Shown here: in pieces, positions 2,927 to 60,739 of the stretch
Position numbering within the stretch: the first letter of the stretch is position 1
Layout of the letters: every line of letters begins with the position of its first letter
Assembly (NCBI GenBank): GCA_032117235.1
Contig: JAULZW010000006.1
Span: 2,532-66,531 of the forward strand
Reading direction: 5' to 3'
Source of the DNA: Minisyncoccota bacterium
GTDB lineage: Bacteria; Patescibacteriota; Minisyncoccia; SW-4-49-11
DNA: 64,000 bases
The notes under the pieces: generated by a model
What the model saw: only the letters and a program-made list of their open reading frames with translations
Databases searched by the model: none
Told to the model about the DNA's origin: nothing
Made by a program: the position numbers and the translations under genes

Positions 2927-3928
2927 ATGACAACTAAAGTTCATCATATAGCGGTTTTGATAGATTGTGATAGAGAAAAGGCAATTCATTGGTTTGAACT
3001 ATTTCGACAAATTCCAATATACCTAAAATCTGAGATACATTTGATTGTATGGAAAGAAGATTTAGCTGATGTGGCTAGATCAATTGTAGATATTGATAAA
3101 GTTCACTTAATGTTACGATCTTTATTTAAGTTCAACGATTATAAATCAATTAATCTTTTAATTCAACAATATAAAATTGAAAAATGTATAGAAATTGGCA
3201 ATATACCTAAATTTGTTAGTTGGAAATTGAAACAGAATAGTATATTAAATATAATCAAAGTATTAGATAAATTTGAACCAGTTGAGCAAATTAATGACTA
3301 TTTCTCAATTTATCCTAGTTATACATCTAAAGTTAATTATAATAAAAAAATTACTTACACTCCATTTCCACAAATTAATTATAAAAATTTTCTTGACTTA
3401 GATACTCAGACAGTATTAGATATCAAGCAAAACATAGGTCTAATAACTTATGACAATCAAATGATAAAAAAATCTTTTGCGTGTGGTTATGCTGGCAATA
3501 TGACTAATGAGTTTATTAAATATGCGGAATACAATCAATGTGAATGGTATGATGTAATTACTAAGGAAGGAAGTTTTGTATTATCAGAAGACTTGTCTAG
3601 TGACTTACCAATAGTATATGAATTGTTAGATTGTTTAGTAGTTAGTGGGGATATAGATACTTTAATACAATATCAAATTCTAAATGCCATAGCCTCAGGT
3701 ACTATAGTAATAGCCCCTAGAGAAGATGCCTACCAAGAGTTACTAGGTAGAGGAGCCCTTTATTATAGTGCTAACTCCGGCAGTGAATTAGAAGCTTGCA
3801 TAGATATTATTCAAAAAAATGAAAATAAAAAAATTGCAATTAGAGAATTAGCATCAGAGCAATTTCAAAGGAAGTATAGTTACCAAGCTATAGCTAATTT
3901 TTGGGGACATATATTAACTAAAATTTAG
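2927..3928 (+). CDS. Hypothetical protein whose C-terminal half resembles a GT-B glycosyltransferase C-domain
   Basis: ORF 2882-3928. The Met at 2927 avoids overlap with mltG. The C-terminal 'ASGTIVIAPREDAYQELLGRGALYY' weakly resembles GT1 C-terminal motifs. Confidence 0.35.
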   Translation: MTTKVHHIAVLIDCDREKAIHWFELFRQIPIYLKSEIHLIVWKEDLADVARSIVDIDKVHLMLRSLFKFNDYKSINLLIQQYKIEKCIEIGNIPKFVSWKLKQNSILNIIKVLDKFEPVEQINDYFSIYPSYTSKVNYNKKITYTPFPQINYKNFLDLDTQTVLDIKQNIGLITYDNQMIKKSFACGYAGNMTNEFIKYAEYNQCEWYDVITKEGSFVLSEDLSSDLPIVYELLDCLVVSGDIDTLIQYQILNAIASGTIVIAPREDAYQELLGRGALYYSANSGSELEACIDIIQKNENKKIAIRELASEQFQRKYSYQAIANFWGHILTKI

Positions 3929-10317: not shown

Positions 10318-10761
10318 TTAAGTCTCTTTCGTTTTCATAGATAACATAAATAAAAGAATAGATAAAATAATAAACACATAATTCCCTATACCTCCTGGGG
10401 CGACACCTGTGAGGGTAAGGGGTTTGAAAAATCCAAGTATAAGTCTGAGACTATATTCAGTAAAGACAAACAGATACATAAGGGGGATAAGAGCTTTGTA
10501 GCGAATTGTGATGATGAGAAACACTATTCCAAGCAGTAGTTGAGAAATTCCCCATAATCCAAACATAAAAATAACCGTATTAGCACTTTCTACAGAATAG
10601 GTATCGAGTGGAATAGTGGCTATACTTTGTGCTCCACCATCAGGGGCTAATATATGAATTAGACTTCGGACTATAGTTATAAAGATGATAATATAAAAAG
10701 TATAGAGAGCAATAGGATGTCCAGTATAGGTGTTATTTATTTGTTTTGGGAAAATATGCAT
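10318..10761 (-). CDS. Hypothetical polytopic membrane protein
   Basis: 147 aa with about four hydrophobic helices and no recognisable motif. Confidence 0.4.
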   Translation of the reverse strand: MHIFPKQINNTYTGHPIALYTFYIIIFITIVRSLIHILAPDGGAQSIATIPLDTYSVESANTVIFMFGLWGISQLLLGIVFLIITIRYKALIPLMYLFVFTEYSLRLILGFFKPLTLTGVAPGGIGNYVFIILSILLFMLSMKTKET

Positions 10762-11615: not shown

Positions 11616-11817
11616 TGCCCCCCTTCGGAGGGGGTGCCTGAAAGGTAGACTGTAAGTCTGGGAAAGGGGTCGGGAAAACGGGAGTTTTCCCGTGAAGGAA
11701 GGTTGGGAAACCGTGAGGTTTCACAGAAGCAAATCCTATTTGCGACGGGGGCGGATAAAATACAAACTTAAACTCTATCCACCTCCGGCCTGACGGCCAC
11801 CTCCTCCAAAGGAGGAT
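11616..11817. repeat. Full copy (modules A+B) of a GC-rich hairpin-dense element; candidate structured ncRNA or miniature mobile element
   Basis: Consecutive perfect hairpins: CCCCCC-ttcg-GAGGGGG, GGGAAAAC-ggga-GTTTTCCC, GAAACC-gtga-GGTTTC, GCAAAT-cct-ATTTGC, GGATA..TATCC, GGCC-tgac-GGCC and CCTCC-aaa-GGAGG. Module A recurs at 12548-12618 and module B at 38051-38156. Confidence 0.5.
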
Positions 11818-11888
11818 AGTTTTTGTAATAAGCTATGGTCGGTAGTCTAATAATATATAGTAATCTTTTTTGTCTACGATCTCTTCTA

Positions 11889-12236: not shown

Positions 12237-12377
12237 CTGTGTATCTCTAGAATTATAGGCTATATATAATGTAAATTATTTATAATTATAAATCTATAAT
12301 CACTTTATACCTTTTGAATAAGAATAAGTTGCAAAATTATGAAAATTTAGGTATACTAAAATAGTTAATTTAATTAT

Positions 12378-12468
12378 GGAGAGATGGCTGAGCTGGTCGA
12401 AAGCACCACACTGCTAACGTGGCATAGGGTAAAACTTATCAAGGGTTCGAATCCCTTTCTCTCCGCCA
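12378..12468 (+). tRNA. tRNA-Ser (anticodon GCT), type II with a long variable arm and an encoded CCA
   Basis: Acceptor GGAGAGA/TCTCTCC, anticodon loop CTGCTAA, variable arm ATAGG..CTTAT, T-arm AGGG-TTCGAAT-CCCT, discriminator G, then CCA. Confidence 0.9.
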
Positions 12469-12496
12469 AAATTAAGAATAGGGATAATATCCCGAC

Positions 12497-12648
12497 CTTT
12501 AATTTATGGGAGTTAGTAAAAAGGGATTCGAATCCAGGGAAGGGGGCGGGAAACGGGAGTTTCCCGTGGAGGATGTATTGAAACCGAGTGGTTTCAAGGA
12601 GCAAATCCCATTTGCGACAGGTTCGTAATCCCTTTCTCTCCGCCAAAA
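12497..12648 (+). repeat. Degenerate tandem copy of tRNA-Ser (pseudo-tRNA) whose middle is occupied by module A of the GC-rich hairpin element. It ends in a near-exact 28-nt repeat of the tRNA-Ser 3' end.
   Basis: The upstream context and 5' segment ('taatttatgggag') echo the true tRNA ('taattatggagag'). 12620-12648 ('ggttcgtaatccctttctctccgccaaaa') repeats the true 3' end with one indel. 12548-12618 is module A. Confidence 0.5.
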
Positions 12649-12681
12649 TATAGAGGATAGGGCTATCAGTTATTTTGTAAG

Positions 12682-13443
12682 ATGAAACTTATATCATTAA
12701 ATACATGGGGTGGTCGAGCAGGGAAGGAAAATCTTCTTGAGTTTTTTAAGGCTTATAAAGATGTAGATATTTTTTGTTTACAGGAAATTTGGGCTGCTCC
12801 ATATGAAAATCTAGAATATGACTCTGTTAGTGGATTTAGTATTGATGATGATTATGCTAAATTTTATATTCAAGAAGTTGTAGATTTGATAACAACTCAT
12901 ACAGCATATTTTAGACCACAATATTCTGATTATTGGGGCCTGATGATATTAATCAAAAAAGATATAAATGTAATTTCAGAGGGGGAGCTTTTCGTCCATA
13001 AAGAAAAGGACTATATTCCTGAAGGAGATATTGGATTACATGCACGAAATATACAATTTGCGACAATTGCAACTCCGAATGGGCACAGGTCTATTATCAA
13101 TTTTCATGGATTATGGAATGGTAAAGGAAAAGGGGATAGCGAAGATAGACTATTACAATCAGATAAAATAATTGAGTTTATACAAACTTTAGCTAATCCA
13201 TATATTATAGCTTGAGATTTTAATCTATTGCCGGATACTCAGAGTATTAAAAAGTTTGAGGACTTGGGACTGAATAATCTCATCAAAGAATATAATATTA
13301 CTTCAACACGTACGAGTTTTTATACTAAGCCCGAAAAATTTGCCGATTATGTGTTTACCGATAAAGATATTACTATAAAAGACTTTAAGGTATTACCTGA
13401 TGAGGTATCTGATCATAGTGCTTTGTATTTGGAATTTGAATAA
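12682..13443 (+). pseudogene. Endonuclease/exonuclease/phosphatase (EEP) family protein interrupted by an in-frame TGA at 13213-13215
   Basis: ORFs 12682-13215 and 13228-13443 share a frame. The sequence reads 'PYIIA*DFNLLPD', so the stop sits where the EEP 'GDFN' Gly is expected. The C-terminus has 'SDHSALY', as in the EEP family. Confidence 0.6.
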
Positions 13444-36074: not shown

Positions 36075-37052
36075 CTAAAATAAACTTGGTACTTTAATTT
36101 TATTATCTAATCTTTTTTCTGCAATTTTAAAATAATCTTGATCAAGTTCATATCCTATAAATTTTCTTTTTAACTCTATACAAGCCACTCCTGTTGACCC
36201 ACTTCCCATAAAAGGGTCTAAAATAATATGTTCATCGAATGTTATTAGTTTTACTAAATGGTGCATCAATTCAATAGGTTTTAGTGTGGGGTGAAAATTA
36301 AAATCTTCTTTATTTTGTCTTACTTTTGGTACTAAAAAAAATTTATCATATCCATCTTTAAATTCATCAGTTCTTATTATATTTGCTGGAACTCTACCTT
36401 TTTCGTGGGGGTTATGTCCTACTTTACCTTCATTTTCAGCATAAGGTAGTCTTGTATTTTCAAAATTTAATGCTCCAGTACCATATTTAATTATATTTTG
36501 AGCAACATTTAAACCTTTTTCTAAGGGCTTTTGTATTAAAATGATTGGTTCATATGCTGGCTTTAATCCTAATCCTGCCCCATTATATCTTTTACCCAAT
36601 TCTGAAATAGGAGATAATTTATGTTTCTCACCTACTTTATAATTATCAGCACCATTTTTTTTATATCCTTGAACATATTTATATCGTCCAACTTTTTTAC
36701 TTTCAATATTAAGTTCTGAATCTATCAACAAGCCAACATTTCTACTTTTTGGCATTCCATTTAAATAAGACCAAAATAATACATCTTTGATTAAAAAGCC
36801 ACTATCTTCTAAATCAACCATTAACCTATGCATTAATCTAACAGAACTAAAAACCAAACCAAAACCACCTGGTTTAATTTTTTTAAAACTATTATTCCAT
36901 ATTTCTTTACTGGGTAAATCTTTATCCCAATAATTATTTTGGTATGAAATACCATAAGGAGGATCAGTTATTATTGAATCAATATAATTATCCTCTATAT
37001 CTTCTAGTAAATATGAGTTTTTATTATAAATTTGAAACATGTTAAACATCAT
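36075..37052 (-). CDS. DNA methyltransferase (beta-class N6-adenine / N4-cytosine; motif IV precedes motif I)
   Basis: 'IITDPPYGISY' (motif IV) is followed near the C-terminus by 'ILDPFMGSGSTGVAC' (motif I). Confidence 0.85.
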   Translation of the reverse strand: MMFNMFQIYNKNSYLLEDIEDNYIDSIITDPPYGISYQNNYWDKDLPSKEIWNNSFKKIKPGGFGLVFSSVRLMHRLMVDLEDSGFLIKDVLFWSYLNGMPKSRNVGLLIDSELNIESKKVGRYKYVQGYKKNGADNYKVGEKHKLSPISELGKRYNGAGLGLKPAYEPIILIQKPLEKGLNVAQNIIKYGTGALNFENTRLPYAENEGKVGHNPHEKGRVPANIIRTDEFKDGYDKFFLVPKVRQNKEDFNFHPTLKPIELMHHLVKLITFDEHIILDPFMGSGSTGVACIELKRKFIGYELDQDYFKIAEKRLDNKIKVPSLF

Positions 37053-37662
37053 TAATGCTCAAAATATCATCTATTGTTAAATATTTTGATATATTTCTTT
37101 TATAATTTATTAATAATTTATATACAAAATCTTTTTTCTTATCTGGTGGAACAATAACATTAAATTTATACTCTTGAATCATTTTTTCTATTCCAATATT
37201 TTGGGTTGAGCGAGTACTTGTATTGGCAACAGCTTTTACTCTTTCCAGTAAATATTTCCCTAAAGCTACATGTTGCCCATATATAATAAATTGTAAATCT
37301 ACAGCTCCTTTCCATACTCCAACAGCTGTAAACAATCTTTTATCACTAAAAGCTATAGCTTTTTCTTCACTTGTATCATTCCATGTTCCACCCAATCTTT
37401 TAGAAAAAACACTACATTGTTTTACCTCAAGAAATTTACCAGTTTTTGAGCTCTTACCGTCAAAGCCATGTTTATTGAAATTTAACAAATCATATCCTAA
37501 ATAATTACCAACAATAGAATCTCTTATTTCATTTATTGTTGTATCAGTATCATAAGACTTAAATTCATTTTGAAATTTAGTTAATTCTTCTAATGCAAGA
37601 ATTCCTTTCGTTCTAAAGGAATATGGGATTGGTCTATAATCACCTTTTTTAAAAATATTCAT
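37042..37662 (-). CDS. Candidate restriction endonuclease (PD-(D/E)xK-like) partner of the methyltransferase
   Basis: It overlaps the MTase start by 11 nt. 'HGFDGKSSKTGKFLEVKQ' gives a D...E-V-K arrangement. The tracked ORF extends to 37716, but that part overlaps a tRNA-derived repeat, so the Met at 37662 is preferred. Confidence 0.45.
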   Translation of the reverse strand: MNIFKKGDYRPIPYSFRTKGILALEELTKFQNEFKSYDTDTTINEIRDSIVGNYLGYDLLNFNKHGFDGKSSKTGKFLEVKQCSVFSKRLGGTWNDTSEEKAIAFSDKRLFTAVGVWKGAVDLQFIIYGQHVALGKYLLERVKAVANTSTRSTQNIGIEKMIQEYKFNVIVPPDKKKDFVYKLLINYKRNISKYLTIDDILSINDV

Positions 37663-37692
37663 AATATTTTTTAGTATACATAAAACAATTTG

Positions 37693-37711
37693 GCGGAAGT
37701 GAGAGGATTCG
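37693..37711 (-). repeat. 19-nt direct repeat of the tRNA-Ser(TGA) 3' end (att-like)
   Basis: 'gcggaagtgagaggattcg' at 37693-37711 matches 37899-37917. The roughly 190-bp interval between the copies has acceptor-like pairing (GAAGTGA...TCACTTCC), like a degraded tRNA copy. Confidence 0.6.
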
Positions 37712-37899
37712 GTCACAAGTAATTTTCCTGACGGAAAATTCTCGCGACCCCGTCTCGCTGTGTTCGCCTTGTGCTTCGCACAAACTCACACTGGGCTGCG
37801 ACTTTCTCATCCCCACGGGAGCAATGCTATTGCTCTCTGTCACTTCTTCAAATATTATTTTTATCTTTTGGCATAAATACCAAAAGATAAAAATATATG

Positions 37900-37986
37900 C
37901 GGAAGTGAGAGGATTCGAACCTCTGGTAGGGGTAAACCTACAACAGTTTTCAAGACTGCCGCCTTCAACCGCTCAGCCACACTTCC
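37900..37986 (-). tRNA. tRNA-Ser (anticodon TGA), type II
   Basis: Minus-strand read: GGAAGTG acceptor, anticodon loop CTTGAAA, long variable arm, T-arm AGAGG-TTCGAAT-CCTCT, discriminator G. Confidence 0.9.
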
Positions 37987-38050
37987 ATTTATAAAATTTA
38001 TTATATCATATTTATGCACTTTTGTACATACTATATATAGAGTCTTAAAA

Positions 38051-38156
38051 TTCCCCTCTTGAGGGGTGTACAGCTTTGCTGGACGGGGTGGATAAAACAT
38101 AAACTAAAACTATATCCACCTCCGGCACTCCGTGCCACCTCCTCCAAAGGAGGACA
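38051..38156. repeat. Partial copy (module B) of the GC-rich hairpin element
   Basis: CCCCTC-tt-GAGGGG, GGATAAAA...TATCC, GGCAC-tcc-GTGCC (compensatory versus GGCC-tgac-GGCC at 11.8 kb) and CCTCC-aaa-GGAGG. It abuts the 5' side of tRNA-Ser(TGA). Confidence 0.45.
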
Positions 38157-60385: not shown

Positions 60386-60713
60386 CCAATAAGAATGGTA
60401 ATCGCGCATATCCATTTTATGGTGAGTGAGGAAAGTCTGGACACCTGTTGCTTAAAAACAATAAATGATAGTGGGTAACACCCATCCTTAAGTTTACTTA
60501 AGCGGGATAAGTATCGCAGAGACAAAACATTTGAGTATAACTCATCTAAGGTGAAAAGAGATAAACCCTATCAGGTGCAAGGCCGTGCTTTTCTTAATTG
60601 AAAAGAGTGCCGCCAAGAAAGTGCTGGTAACAGTACTTCAAGATAAATGATTACCTTAAGTATTATTGCTAGACAATATGCTTAAACAGAATCCAGCTTA
60701 TATTCTTTATTGG
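60386..60713 (+). ncRNA. rnpB: RNase P RNA (bacterial type, reduced size)
   Basis: P4 strands 'GAGGAAAGTCTGGAC' and 'ACAGAATCCAGCTTA'. P1 pairs CCAATAAGAATGG with ATTCTTTATTGG. A TATAAT -10 lies at 60371-60376. Confidence 0.8.
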
Positions 60714-60739
60714 GTACTATATATCACCAATATAATAAT

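Follow-up and report, generated by a model that had tools for sequence, protein, structure and literature searches.

The window analysed here (the whole stretch of DNA, 64,000 nucleotides in length) contains an intact tRNA-Ser(GCT) gene whose 3' end is repeated a short distance downstream, and the question raised by this locus is what the DNA between the two copies is and how it came to lie there. The window has a G+C content of about 32%, its proteins recur in freshwater metagenome contigs, and it is syntenic with L012, a Lake Mendota 'Candidatus Paceibacteria' MAG, at 73-99% protein identity.

The tRNA-Ser(GCT) gene (12378..12468, + strand) is intact and has an encoded CCA (ARAGORN and Rfam, 56 bits); at E ≤ 10, the sole match to Rfam RF00005 in the region is 12378-12465. 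Its sequence is the same in every related locus examined, with the exception of L114, which has one change at position 7. A promoter-like site upstream of the gene (TTGCAA, a 17-nt spacer, and TATACT; 12329..12357, + strand) is the only such site on the + strand before the second unit, and this promoter region is conserved in L012, L017, L111, L112, L115, L117, and L119. The 3' end of the tRNA recurs 177 nt downstream: there are exactly two occurrences of the 23-mer AATCCCTTTCTCTCCGCCAAAAT, at 12450-12472 and 12627-12649 (0.00 matches are expected in shuffled sequence), and if a single inserted T is allowed (GGTTCGtAATCC) the similarity extends upstream into the T-arm, for a total of about 30 nt. 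The first copy (12443..12472, +) consists of the T-arm, the acceptor 3' strand, G73, CCA, and AAAAT. The second (12619..12649, +), aGGTTCGtAATCCCTTTCTCTCCGCCA followed by AAAT, constitutes the 3' arm of a helix, P1, and a tRNA-like tail; the inserted T is confined to this copy in every genome compared. A preliminary description of the locus had reported a tRNA-Ser(GCT) followed by a repeat of its 3' end, with a hairpin module in the centre of the second unit. The former is confirmed by ARAGORN, Rfam, and the exact duplication of the 23-mer, and the latter by a covariance model, in which 12537-12618 is homologous to 11660-11746.

The same description took the second unit to be a degenerate tandem pseudo-tRNA. 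This identity does not hold, since the unit has neither a D arm nor an anticodon arm and is rejected by tRNA models. ARAGORN in its standard and intron modes finds no tRNA, whether functional, pseudo, or intron-containing, in 12508-12648; with a lowered threshold it places a 4-nt-anticodon call in the second unit, among other spurious calls. A tmRNA has also been rejected: the tmRNA mode of ARAGORN is negative, a tag frame is missing, and the element is multi-copy. The only Rfam signal for tmRNA is an 11.7-bit chance match to permuted tmRNA, which lies at another locus. (The stand-alone pairing GGGGGUG/CACCUCC-U-CCA was considered as a tmRNA mark and discarded, because ARAGORN is negative, the pairing fails in L032 and L013, and the element is multi-copy.) Likewise, a group I intron within a tRNA is rejected, there being no Rfam intron match, a core of 82 nt where a P3-P9 catalytic core has 200 nt or more, and no tRNA 5' half around the core. 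A functional tRNA or tmRNA that contains an intron or is otherwise unusual might be suggested by the GCCA end, the T-loop-like GGTTCGTAAT, and a possible 3:70 G-U. However, the intron and tmRNA modes of ARAGORN are negative, the Rfam models for tRNA, tmRNA, and group I intron find nothing in the second unit at E ≤ 10, and the unit has no D arm, anticodon arm, or tag frame, so that the probability of such an RNA is close to nil.

Orthologous loci, fetched by means of the neighbouring nitroreductase, show how this unit varies among relatives. (The comparison sequences are metagenome contigs and make up a small sample, selected in part by the pattern of the core called Y; only part of the loci returned by the metagenome pattern scan carried the element, and a covariance model recovered further true copies.) In these loci the tRNA-Ser(GCT) is identical, most of them share its promoter region as well, and what comes after the gene takes one of four forms. 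A cassette with the Y core is present in the window, L077, L097, L112, L114, L014, L030/L094, and L017; a cassette of about 215 bp with another core, X, is present in L111, L115, and L119; a variant cassette is present in L012, a close relative of the window; and in L117 and L113 the site is empty. The empty site that was to be looked for in relatives is found, and the functional intron-containing tRNA that had been named in advance as the observation that would speak against a pseudo-tRNA is absent from this position in the relatives. In L111, the flanks are those of the window on both sides, including the start of a nuclease-family gene, and the core is X instead of Y. In L117, the sequence ...CTCTCCGCAT is followed by 17 nt and then by a NUDIX gene, which is the same gene that follows the Y cassette in L097. 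At least five lineages have the 177-bp unit in nearly the same form. Conservation is about 97% for the cassette and about 87% for T1, a hairpin next to the tRNA, and the DNA past the second copy of the repeat differs between genomes; the neighbouring proteins are only 69-89% identical across genomes in which the cassette is near-identical. Since the insertion comes, goes, and is exchanged for another cassette, its behaviour is that of a mobile element, and the mobility of the cassette can be stated with good confidence.

Because the empty alleles do not have the hairpin T1, T1 must be part of the insert, and the inserted DNA in the window is 12469-12645, 177 bp that are non-coding. T1 (12469..12505, +) is a spacer hairpin formed by an inverted repeat (AAATTAAGAATAGGGATA / TATCCCgaccTTTAATTT), which is missing from L117 and L113 and is better paired in L014, L030, L017, and L114 than in the window. 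Next comes GGGAG with the linker TTAGTAA (12508..12519, +), a segment that is kept in all Y cassettes at tRNA-Ser(GCT) and that can form 4 bp with CTCC of the acceptor 3' strand. (If the 5' end of the cassette is taken as GGGAG, a G-U at 3:70 is possible.) The P1 5' arm, AAAGGGATTCGAATCC (12520..12535, +), is the complement of the T-arm part of the 3' piece and lies flush with the core, as seen by an inverted-repeat search, a minimum-free-energy fold, and an in-register pairing table. The Y core (12537..12618, +) is 82 nt of GC-rich sequence with a G-rich leader (GGGAAGGGGG), the hairpins H2 (12547-12566) and H3 (12578-12597), which show covariation, and H4 (12601-12615), an invariant palindrome (GCAAATCCCATTTGC) followed by a terminal GAC. 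UUCG and GNRA-type loops occur in the cassette. A short ORF after AGGAG...TTG was dismissed, as its frame, checked by eye, is not conserved. Beyond the repeat, the native downstream flank, common to the window, L111, and L114, has a weak hairpin (GATAGggCTATC) and then a T-rich run (12656..12676, +), which we infer to be a terminator; a terminator-like hairpin also follows the cassette in relatives.

Given an insert bounded by copies of a tRNA 3' end, it could be supposed that a large integrase-borne island once lay here, that all but about 150 bp of it has since been deleted, and that the second copy is its attR scar. The repeat starts in the T-arm and runs past the end of the tRNA, as it does at tyrosine-integrase sites, and the genes downstream are of the accessory type (the nuclease-family gene here, a DNA methylase with a partner ORF after an X cassette). 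An intact tRNA with a displaced 3' fragment as the bounding direct repeat, as in a tRNA-integrated island, is present; an integrase in or beside the insert is not, the 177 bp being non-coding and none occurring among 20 neighbouring proteins. In addition, the nuclease-family gene is also found beside the nitroreductase in L111 and L114 and is therefore not island cargo. A search for a third, distal copy of the repeat that would bound an island yielded nothing above shuffled controls, and a full-length island with an integrase between the repeats is seen in none of 15 related contigs. Moreover, the same 177 bp persist nearly unchanged in many genomes and are swapped in others for another small cassette. 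A scar of this kind is therefore very improbable, and both it and an intron-bearing tRNA are effectively excluded. The proposal in the preliminary description of an att-site duplication left by an integrase event thus survives in part: the tRNA 3' end does form a direct repeat on either side of the insert, but the insert is not the scar of a large island, and no integrase is nearby.

The Y core is a structured module that is present in multiple copies. The covariance model finds only two Y matches in the 64 kb, 12537-12618 (94.8 bits) and 11660-11746 (112.8 bits), and 37 among the loci compared, all of them in low-GC contigs; the true matches that carry an organism label come from Parcubacteria/Paceibacteria/Minisyncoccia MAGs, with one exception, which is labelled Saccharibacteria. 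The module is about 85 nt long, and the first 14 copies have a mean identity of 89%. Among 31 distinct Y sequences, the hairpins H2, H3, and H4 are 97% paired, and eight pairs have changes on both sides, a number reached by 0 of 500 shuffles, although the alignment was fitted to the covariance model and so leans towards structure. H2 and H3 have both compensatory changes and single-sided changes that give G-U on the sense strand, and H4 (GCAAATCCNATTTGC) with the following GAC is almost invariant in sequence; H4-GAC is also found joined to other upstream modules. With the gathering threshold and with E ≤ 10, Rfam identifies only tRNAs and RNase P at the three loci, and the Y core belongs to no Rfam family.

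The second Y copy in the window lies within a stand-alone composite element (11617..11824, +), which is made up of a 5' hairpin (11617-11636), the hairpin H1 (11647-11659), the Y core (11660-11746), the reverse complement of a multi-copy quasi-palindromic 'host' element (11747-11816), and a terminator. The host element, of which there are four copies in 14.7 kb of L092, also occurs without the Y module, as it does just upstream of the promoter of tRNA-Ser(TGA) in the window (38050..38155, - strand). At the orthologous site in L112, exactly H1 and Y are missing (approximately 11646-11745 of the window) and the remainder is collinear. Here the empty junction reads AAGG/CGGAGG, that is, AAGG/CGGAGGTGGAT, and the filled one has the insert between AAGG and GG.GG, that is, AAGG, then TAGACT...GCGAC, then GGCGGAGG. 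Consequently, at 11.6 kb the Y module is a clean insertion or deletion of about 100 bp with a duplication of at most 2 bp, and since the duplication is so small, the 26-52-nt repeat at tRNAs must arise by a different step. Truncated Y copies exist, as do copies with extra inserted modules.

The arrangement seen behind tRNA-Ser(GCT) is not restricted to that gene. A cassette with one layout (from 5' to 3', a hairpin, one or two short segments complementary to the T-loop and to the acceptor 3' strand, a core, and a copy of the 3' end of its own tRNA) is found behind six different tRNAs: Ser-GCT, with the Y core in the window and relatives and the X core in some relatives; Ser-TGA, with the X core, in the window (37691-37850, - strand); Ser-CGA, with X and then Y in tandem, each ending with the 3' end of the tRNA (L015); Leu-GAG, with the Y core (L011); Leu-TAA, with the X core, a 52-nt exact repeat that includes the terminator, and then a second, truncated unit (L051); and Lys-CTT, with the X core (L092). 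The Lys-CTT cassette rules out a restriction to class II tRNAs (Ser/Leu, with synthetases that ignore the anticodon). In the window, the X cassette follows tRNA-Ser(TGA) (37899..37986, -) and consists of GAAGTGA (37846-37840), a hairpin, GGGGAT (37814-37809), the X core, and the tRNA piece, an exact copy of the 3' end of tRNA-Ser(TGA) with its CCA (37711-37691, -). The X core is about 110 nt, is unrelated to Y, and is conserved across its loci; one of its hairpins, which reads GTGCGAAGCAC in some of the copies and CCCTGAAAGGG in another copy, is fully compensated. The tRNA-derived piece begins inside the T-arm in every cassette (at C56 in X cassettes, at U55 in the Leu-GAG Y cassette, and at G51 in the Ser-GCT Y cassette), the duplication of the tRNA 3' end ranges from 19 to 52 nt across tRNA sites, and the orientation is always that of the tRNA.

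Several familiar classes were compared with these cassettes. A MITE does not fit, because the arms vary with the tRNA, and a duplication that amounts to 19-52 nt at tRNAs is about 2 bp at 11.6 kb. A riboswitch or leader was set aside, as the downstream genes are unrelated to each other, and so was a phage origin, since viral contigs scanned for the pattern showed no matches other than chance ones. The integron attC boxes RYYYAAC/GTTRRRY are not evident by eye at the junctions, and the likeness to integrons is an analogy of a folded strand. An interspersed family of GC-rich palindromic repeats (REP/BIME- or GC-cluster-like), loosely defined, does describe the element. Rfam and a limited search of full-text literature returned no tRNA-tail cassettes with target-matched arms in CPR bacteria, and the cassette looks like a new kind of miniature mobile DNA at the ends of tRNA genes in these bacteria.

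The arms of the cassette are matched to the tRNA behind which it lies. In L015, L051, and L092, all eight nucleotides that immediately precede the X core pair with the eight that open the tRNA piece (8/8), and in the in-register table five of these eight positions change on both sides between tRNAs. (The in-register table was used because a free-register helix search that allows G-U is uninformative, given the high background from G/T-rich and C/T-rich strands; MAFFT with RNAalifold misaligned the Leu-GAG arm, and arm covariation there could not be scored in that way.) The arm of the Leu-GAG Y cassette forms seven Watson-Crick pairs and one G-U, and that of the Ser-GCT Y cassette 16 bp with one bulge; in the X copy of the window the pairing is weaker. 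Both the core-adjacent arm and the tRNA piece are flush with the core. In L015, where the 3' piece of the cassette is mutated, the arm is complementary to this mutated version (GAGATTCG/CGAATCTC). In longer X cassettes there is a second arm segment, and the hairpin that lies between it and the first is homologous from cassette to cassette. This second segment reads as the reverse complement of the 3' strand of the acceptor and T-stem: GAAGTGA for Ser-TGA, and GAGAGAAAG for Ser-GCT in L111. Since it continues past position 7 as complement rather than as tRNA 5' sequence, it is read as a paired arm. An acceptor-like helix is 4 bp in the Ser-GCT Y cassette and missing in L051 and L092.

These arms bear directly on a local, two-step origin, in which a tRNA and its terminator were duplicated in tandem, a GC-rich module entered the T-arm of the spare copy, and the D and anticodon arms were then lost. 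The preliminary description had noted a likeness between the start of the second unit and the tRNA leader and 5' region, and such a likeness is present and recurs in relatives (taatttatgggag vs taattatggagag), but it is short, AT-rich, and weak, and it is explained equally well as complementarity to the 3' piece; whether the GGGAG at the start of the Ser-GCT Y unit is a tRNA 5' copy or a paired arm is ambiguous. A leader and first bases like a tRNA start (aattAtggagag vs aatttAtgggag in the window, aattCtggagag vs aatttCtgggag in L017), the beginning of the L011 unit (ATGCAAGAAAGTGGA vs ATGCGCAGGTGGTGGA of the tRNA), the occurrence in L014, L111, and L051 of T1 and the downstream terminator as diverged duplicates, and the insertion of the Y module by itself elsewhere (the 11.6-kb site) are all what two local steps would produce. 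Yet duplication and invasion would have to have occurred independently at no fewer than six tRNAs and to have led to the same result each time, X and Y cassettes at one tRNA have the same layout, and the hairpin between the arms is homologous in the X cassettes at Ser-TGA and Ser-GCT. In addition, the 5' segments beyond position 7 are the reverse complement of the 3' piece and not the tRNA 5' end, and L051 and L092 lack any remnant of a tRNA 5' end. Such an origin is accordingly judged unlikely. As for the tandem tRNA invaded by a small insertion that had been offered as another reading, a small GC-rich module is indeed involved, but the unit is not simply a degenerate tandem tRNA.

A different reading of the same structures, to which a minor but appreciable probability is given, is that the cassette encodes a small RNA that is useful to the host and is tethered to the tRNA gene in a dicistronic precursor. 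The tRNA-like acceptor/T helix and GCCA tail would then provide tRNA-type end processing and stability, as they do in tmRNA or in an engineered tRNA scaffold, the GC-rich core would carry the function, and presence or absence would reflect gain and loss of an accessory RNA gene. This would agree with an identity of about 97% across lineages whose flanks are unalignable, with the compensatory and G-U-only single changes in H2 and H3, with the pairing of the arm to its own mutated 3' piece in L015, with the UUCG/GNRA-type loops, and with an orientation that is that of the tRNA, no separate promoter, and a terminator that follows. Against it, the cassette is dispensable (empty in L117 and L113, altered in L012), two unrelated cores are interchangeable at one site, and truncated or altered copies occur; there is no Rfam family, the acceptor-like helix is 4 bp in Y and missing in L051 and L092, and the downstream genes have no common theme. 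The near-identity of the cassette in genomes with divergent neighbouring proteins, taken with the covariation of hairpins and arms, suits a selected functional RNA no less than a mobile element. The small-RNA and mobile-element views are compatible, as they are for other transcribed repeats.

Taken together, these comparisons argue, with moderate confidence, that the best explanation for 12469-12645 is a small, protein-less, non-autonomous mobile cassette, specific to a clade of Paceibacteria, that targets the 3' ends of tRNA genes. It is considered non-autonomous because it has no coding capacity and no integrase or transposase is present among 20 neighbouring proteins; in a Pfam search of those proteins, neither of these enzymes nor a reverse transcriptase was found near any cassette. 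The homology of the hairpin in the X cassettes at Ser-TGA and Ser-GCT indicates that the between-arm hairpin travels with the cassette. In L015 and L051, the tandem arrays are what one would expect if a single site had been used more than once. How the cassette inserts can be suggested with low confidence. A tRNA-end repeat that begins in the T-arm and extends beyond the gene is the trace of Campbell-type integration at tRNA genes (PMC4383910, PMC1762012). It may enter by recombination through its own copy of the tRNA 3' end (Campbell-type, either site-specific or homology-driven), with a recombining enzyme that would be encoded elsewhere, an event that would duplicate the tRNA 3' end and leave the tRNA intact; no excised or circular form was observed. 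The inserted cassette would then be transcribed by read-through from the tRNA promoter, and the transcript could fold into a stem-closed RNA that resembles a tRNA minihelix and has a tRNA-type 3' end. Because the tRNA's promoter is the sole candidate and terminators follow the cassette in relatives, co-transcription and folding are likely, and the cassette is probably co-transcribed with the tRNA.

A single moving cassette leaves unexplained the match of the arms to each new tRNA. Candidate processes are selection for the closing helix, template switching that corrects imperfect inverted repeats, and fold-back synthesis at insertion. A more speculative scheme, which is put forward as rather doubtful, is that the cassette targets itself by tRNA mimicry and base pairing and represents a new class of miniature, protein-less, tRNA-guided mobile element in ultra-small bacteria. 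In this scheme, the arms and the tRNA 3' piece of a single strand would fold as a copy of the acceptor/T helix, and the unit that begins just after the first GCCA and ends with the second would be exactly the piece set free when tRNA 3'-end processing acts on the read-through transcript. The element might spread as the processed tRNA-trailer RNA or as a folded single DNA strand and be copied back beside a matching tRNA gene, with fold-back or template-switch synthesis producing the arm that abuts the core.

In Paceibacteria, as in other CPR bacteria, genomes are tiny and only a few mobile elements have been recognised. If the mobile-cassette explanation is true, these genomes contain non-coding cassettes of 180-215 bp that land at the ends of tRNA genes, belong to one family, and combine exchangeable structured cores with arms matched to the target tRNA. 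Such a family would be a marker for recent DNA exchange in uncultured lineages, would account for GC-rich islands and pseudo-tRNA signals in AT-rich genomes that annotation pipelines otherwise miss or mislabel, and would make it practicable to ask how an element without protein locates a tRNA gene, be it through a trans-acting recombinase, through homology, or through a folded nucleic-acid guide. If the cores are functional RNAs instead, X and Y would each define a new class of structured RNA that is naturally mounted on a tRNA scaffold.

Known systems share some features of the cassette and differ in others: its outcome is that of a tRNA-integrating island, its size and modularity recall mitochondrial GC clusters or bacterial mosaic repeats, and its shape is reminiscent of tmRNA or a tRNA scaffold. 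The Islander definition of tRNA-gene genomic islands, which use tyrosine integrases, includes a repeat that extends from the T-arm past the gene end (PMC4383910), and mycobacteriophage Ms6 has a T-loop attB within a tRNA gene (PMC1762012). As in tRNA-integrated islands and prophages, the tRNA at the cassette is intact and a displaced 3' end, starting in the T-arm, lies at the far end of the insert; as with such islands, tandem arrays occur at one tRNA (L015, L051) and occupancy varies. Unlike these islands, the cassette is only 177-215 bp and has no gene or integrase, the same core is found behind different tRNAs, each with its own end, and complementary segments flank the core.

The GC clusters of yeast are mobile GC-rich palindromes in an AT-rich mitochondrial genome that duplicate AG at the target (PMC4478555). 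Like mitochondrial GC clusters, the cassettes are built from short GC-rich hairpin modules in an AT-rich genome, are multi-copy and modular, merge and nest, are present or absent in close relatives, flank tRNAs, and have a tiny duplication (GG at 11.6 kb, AG in yeast). Yin et al. are said to have described, in 1981, GC-rich palindromes that flank tRNA genes in Neurospora mitochondria. In contrast to these clusters, the cassettes are in a bacterial host, their multi-hairpin units are longer (85-110 nt), and the tRNA-linked form duplicates 26-52 nt of the tRNA end and has matched arms.

In tmRNA and tRNA-scaffolded RNAs, a foreign structured domain sits between two ends that pair as an acceptor/T-like helix and carry a CCA tail, an architecture to which that of the cassette is similar; unlike tmRNA, the cassette has no alanine identity, tag frame, or SmpB-type D-loop analogue, and it is multi-copy and dispensable. 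REP/BIME, BOX, and Correia elements, Rickettsia palindromic elements, and MITEs are non-coding, multi-copy, intergenic, hairpin-forming, mosaic, and co-transcribed with neighbouring genes, and the cassette is alike in these respects, its own co-transcription being probable. We know of no transposase that goes with the cassette. It differs from these bacterial interspersed repeats in that it has no short, fixed target duplication at tRNA sites and in that its terminal inverted repeats vary, being copied from or matched to the target tRNA.

An arrangement found in a related locus, L076, suggests that dispersed copies of the GC-rich Y core have recombined with each other. Here (positions 3205-3409) a 5' part of the type seen in the stand-alone composite element is followed by a Y core and then by an orphan, diverged 3' piece of a tRNA-Leu. 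No tRNA gene lies upstream of the Y core and the orphan piece, and the flank that follows the piece is homologous to that of L011, a locus that carries a Y cassette at tRNA-Leu(GAG). Order also differs around the stand-alone element itself: the gene for a 147-aa membrane protein (10318-10761 in the window; 4320-4763 in L012, a close relative) lies on opposite sides of this element and a neighbouring gene in the two genomes. This change of side is a local rearrangement, with copies of the repeat family at its bounds.

Downstream of the tRNA-Ser(GCT) cassette is a gene of the endonuclease/exonuclease/phosphatase family (12682-13443), which in the window is broken by a single in-frame TGA (13213-13215). 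The gene is unbroken in L111 and L114, where it encodes 253 aa, and it is missing from L012, L014, and L112. L114 comes from a more distant relative, whose nitroreductase is only 75% identical but which hardly differs from the window in its Y cassette or in the flank downstream of it. In its tRNA-Ser(GCT) (L114 4651-4741, minus strand), position 7 is occupied by G (GGAGAGG), so that U66 lies opposite it in a G-U pair.

Behind tRNA-Ser(TGA) the window has another tRNA-tail cassette, this one built on the unrelated X core (37691-37986, minus strand); the tRNA gene reads GCAT, versus the GCCA encoded in the cassette's tRNA piece. Immediately upstream of the promoter of this tRNA is a copy of the 'host' element, which is quasi-palindromic and multi-copy; this one has no Y module (38050-38155, minus strand). 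Directly downstream of the cassette, an N6/N4 DNA methylase and an adjoining 203-aa ORF, which has no Pfam match, may form a restriction-modification pair (36075-37653, minus strand).

The Y core opens with a stretch (GGGAAGGGGGCGGGAAACGGG) that matches a four-run G-quadruplex pattern, at 12537-12559 and 11660-11684. In Y copies with a CGGTAG loop the fourth G run is broken, and the pattern is therefore not conserved across the family. In a widespread subfamily of the core, a third GC-rich module, Z (~90 nt, terminal inverted repeats AATCCCCC...GGGGGATT), is placed between the G-rich leader and hairpin H2. Copies of Z, which occurs in either orientation, are found in L012 (3940-4055), where it adjoins the tRNA-Ser gene, in L092 (5330-5420), and in L040, L026, L065, and L022.

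Elsewhere in the window, an RNase P RNA of the bacterial class A (60386-60717; 125.9 bits) has several helices reduced.
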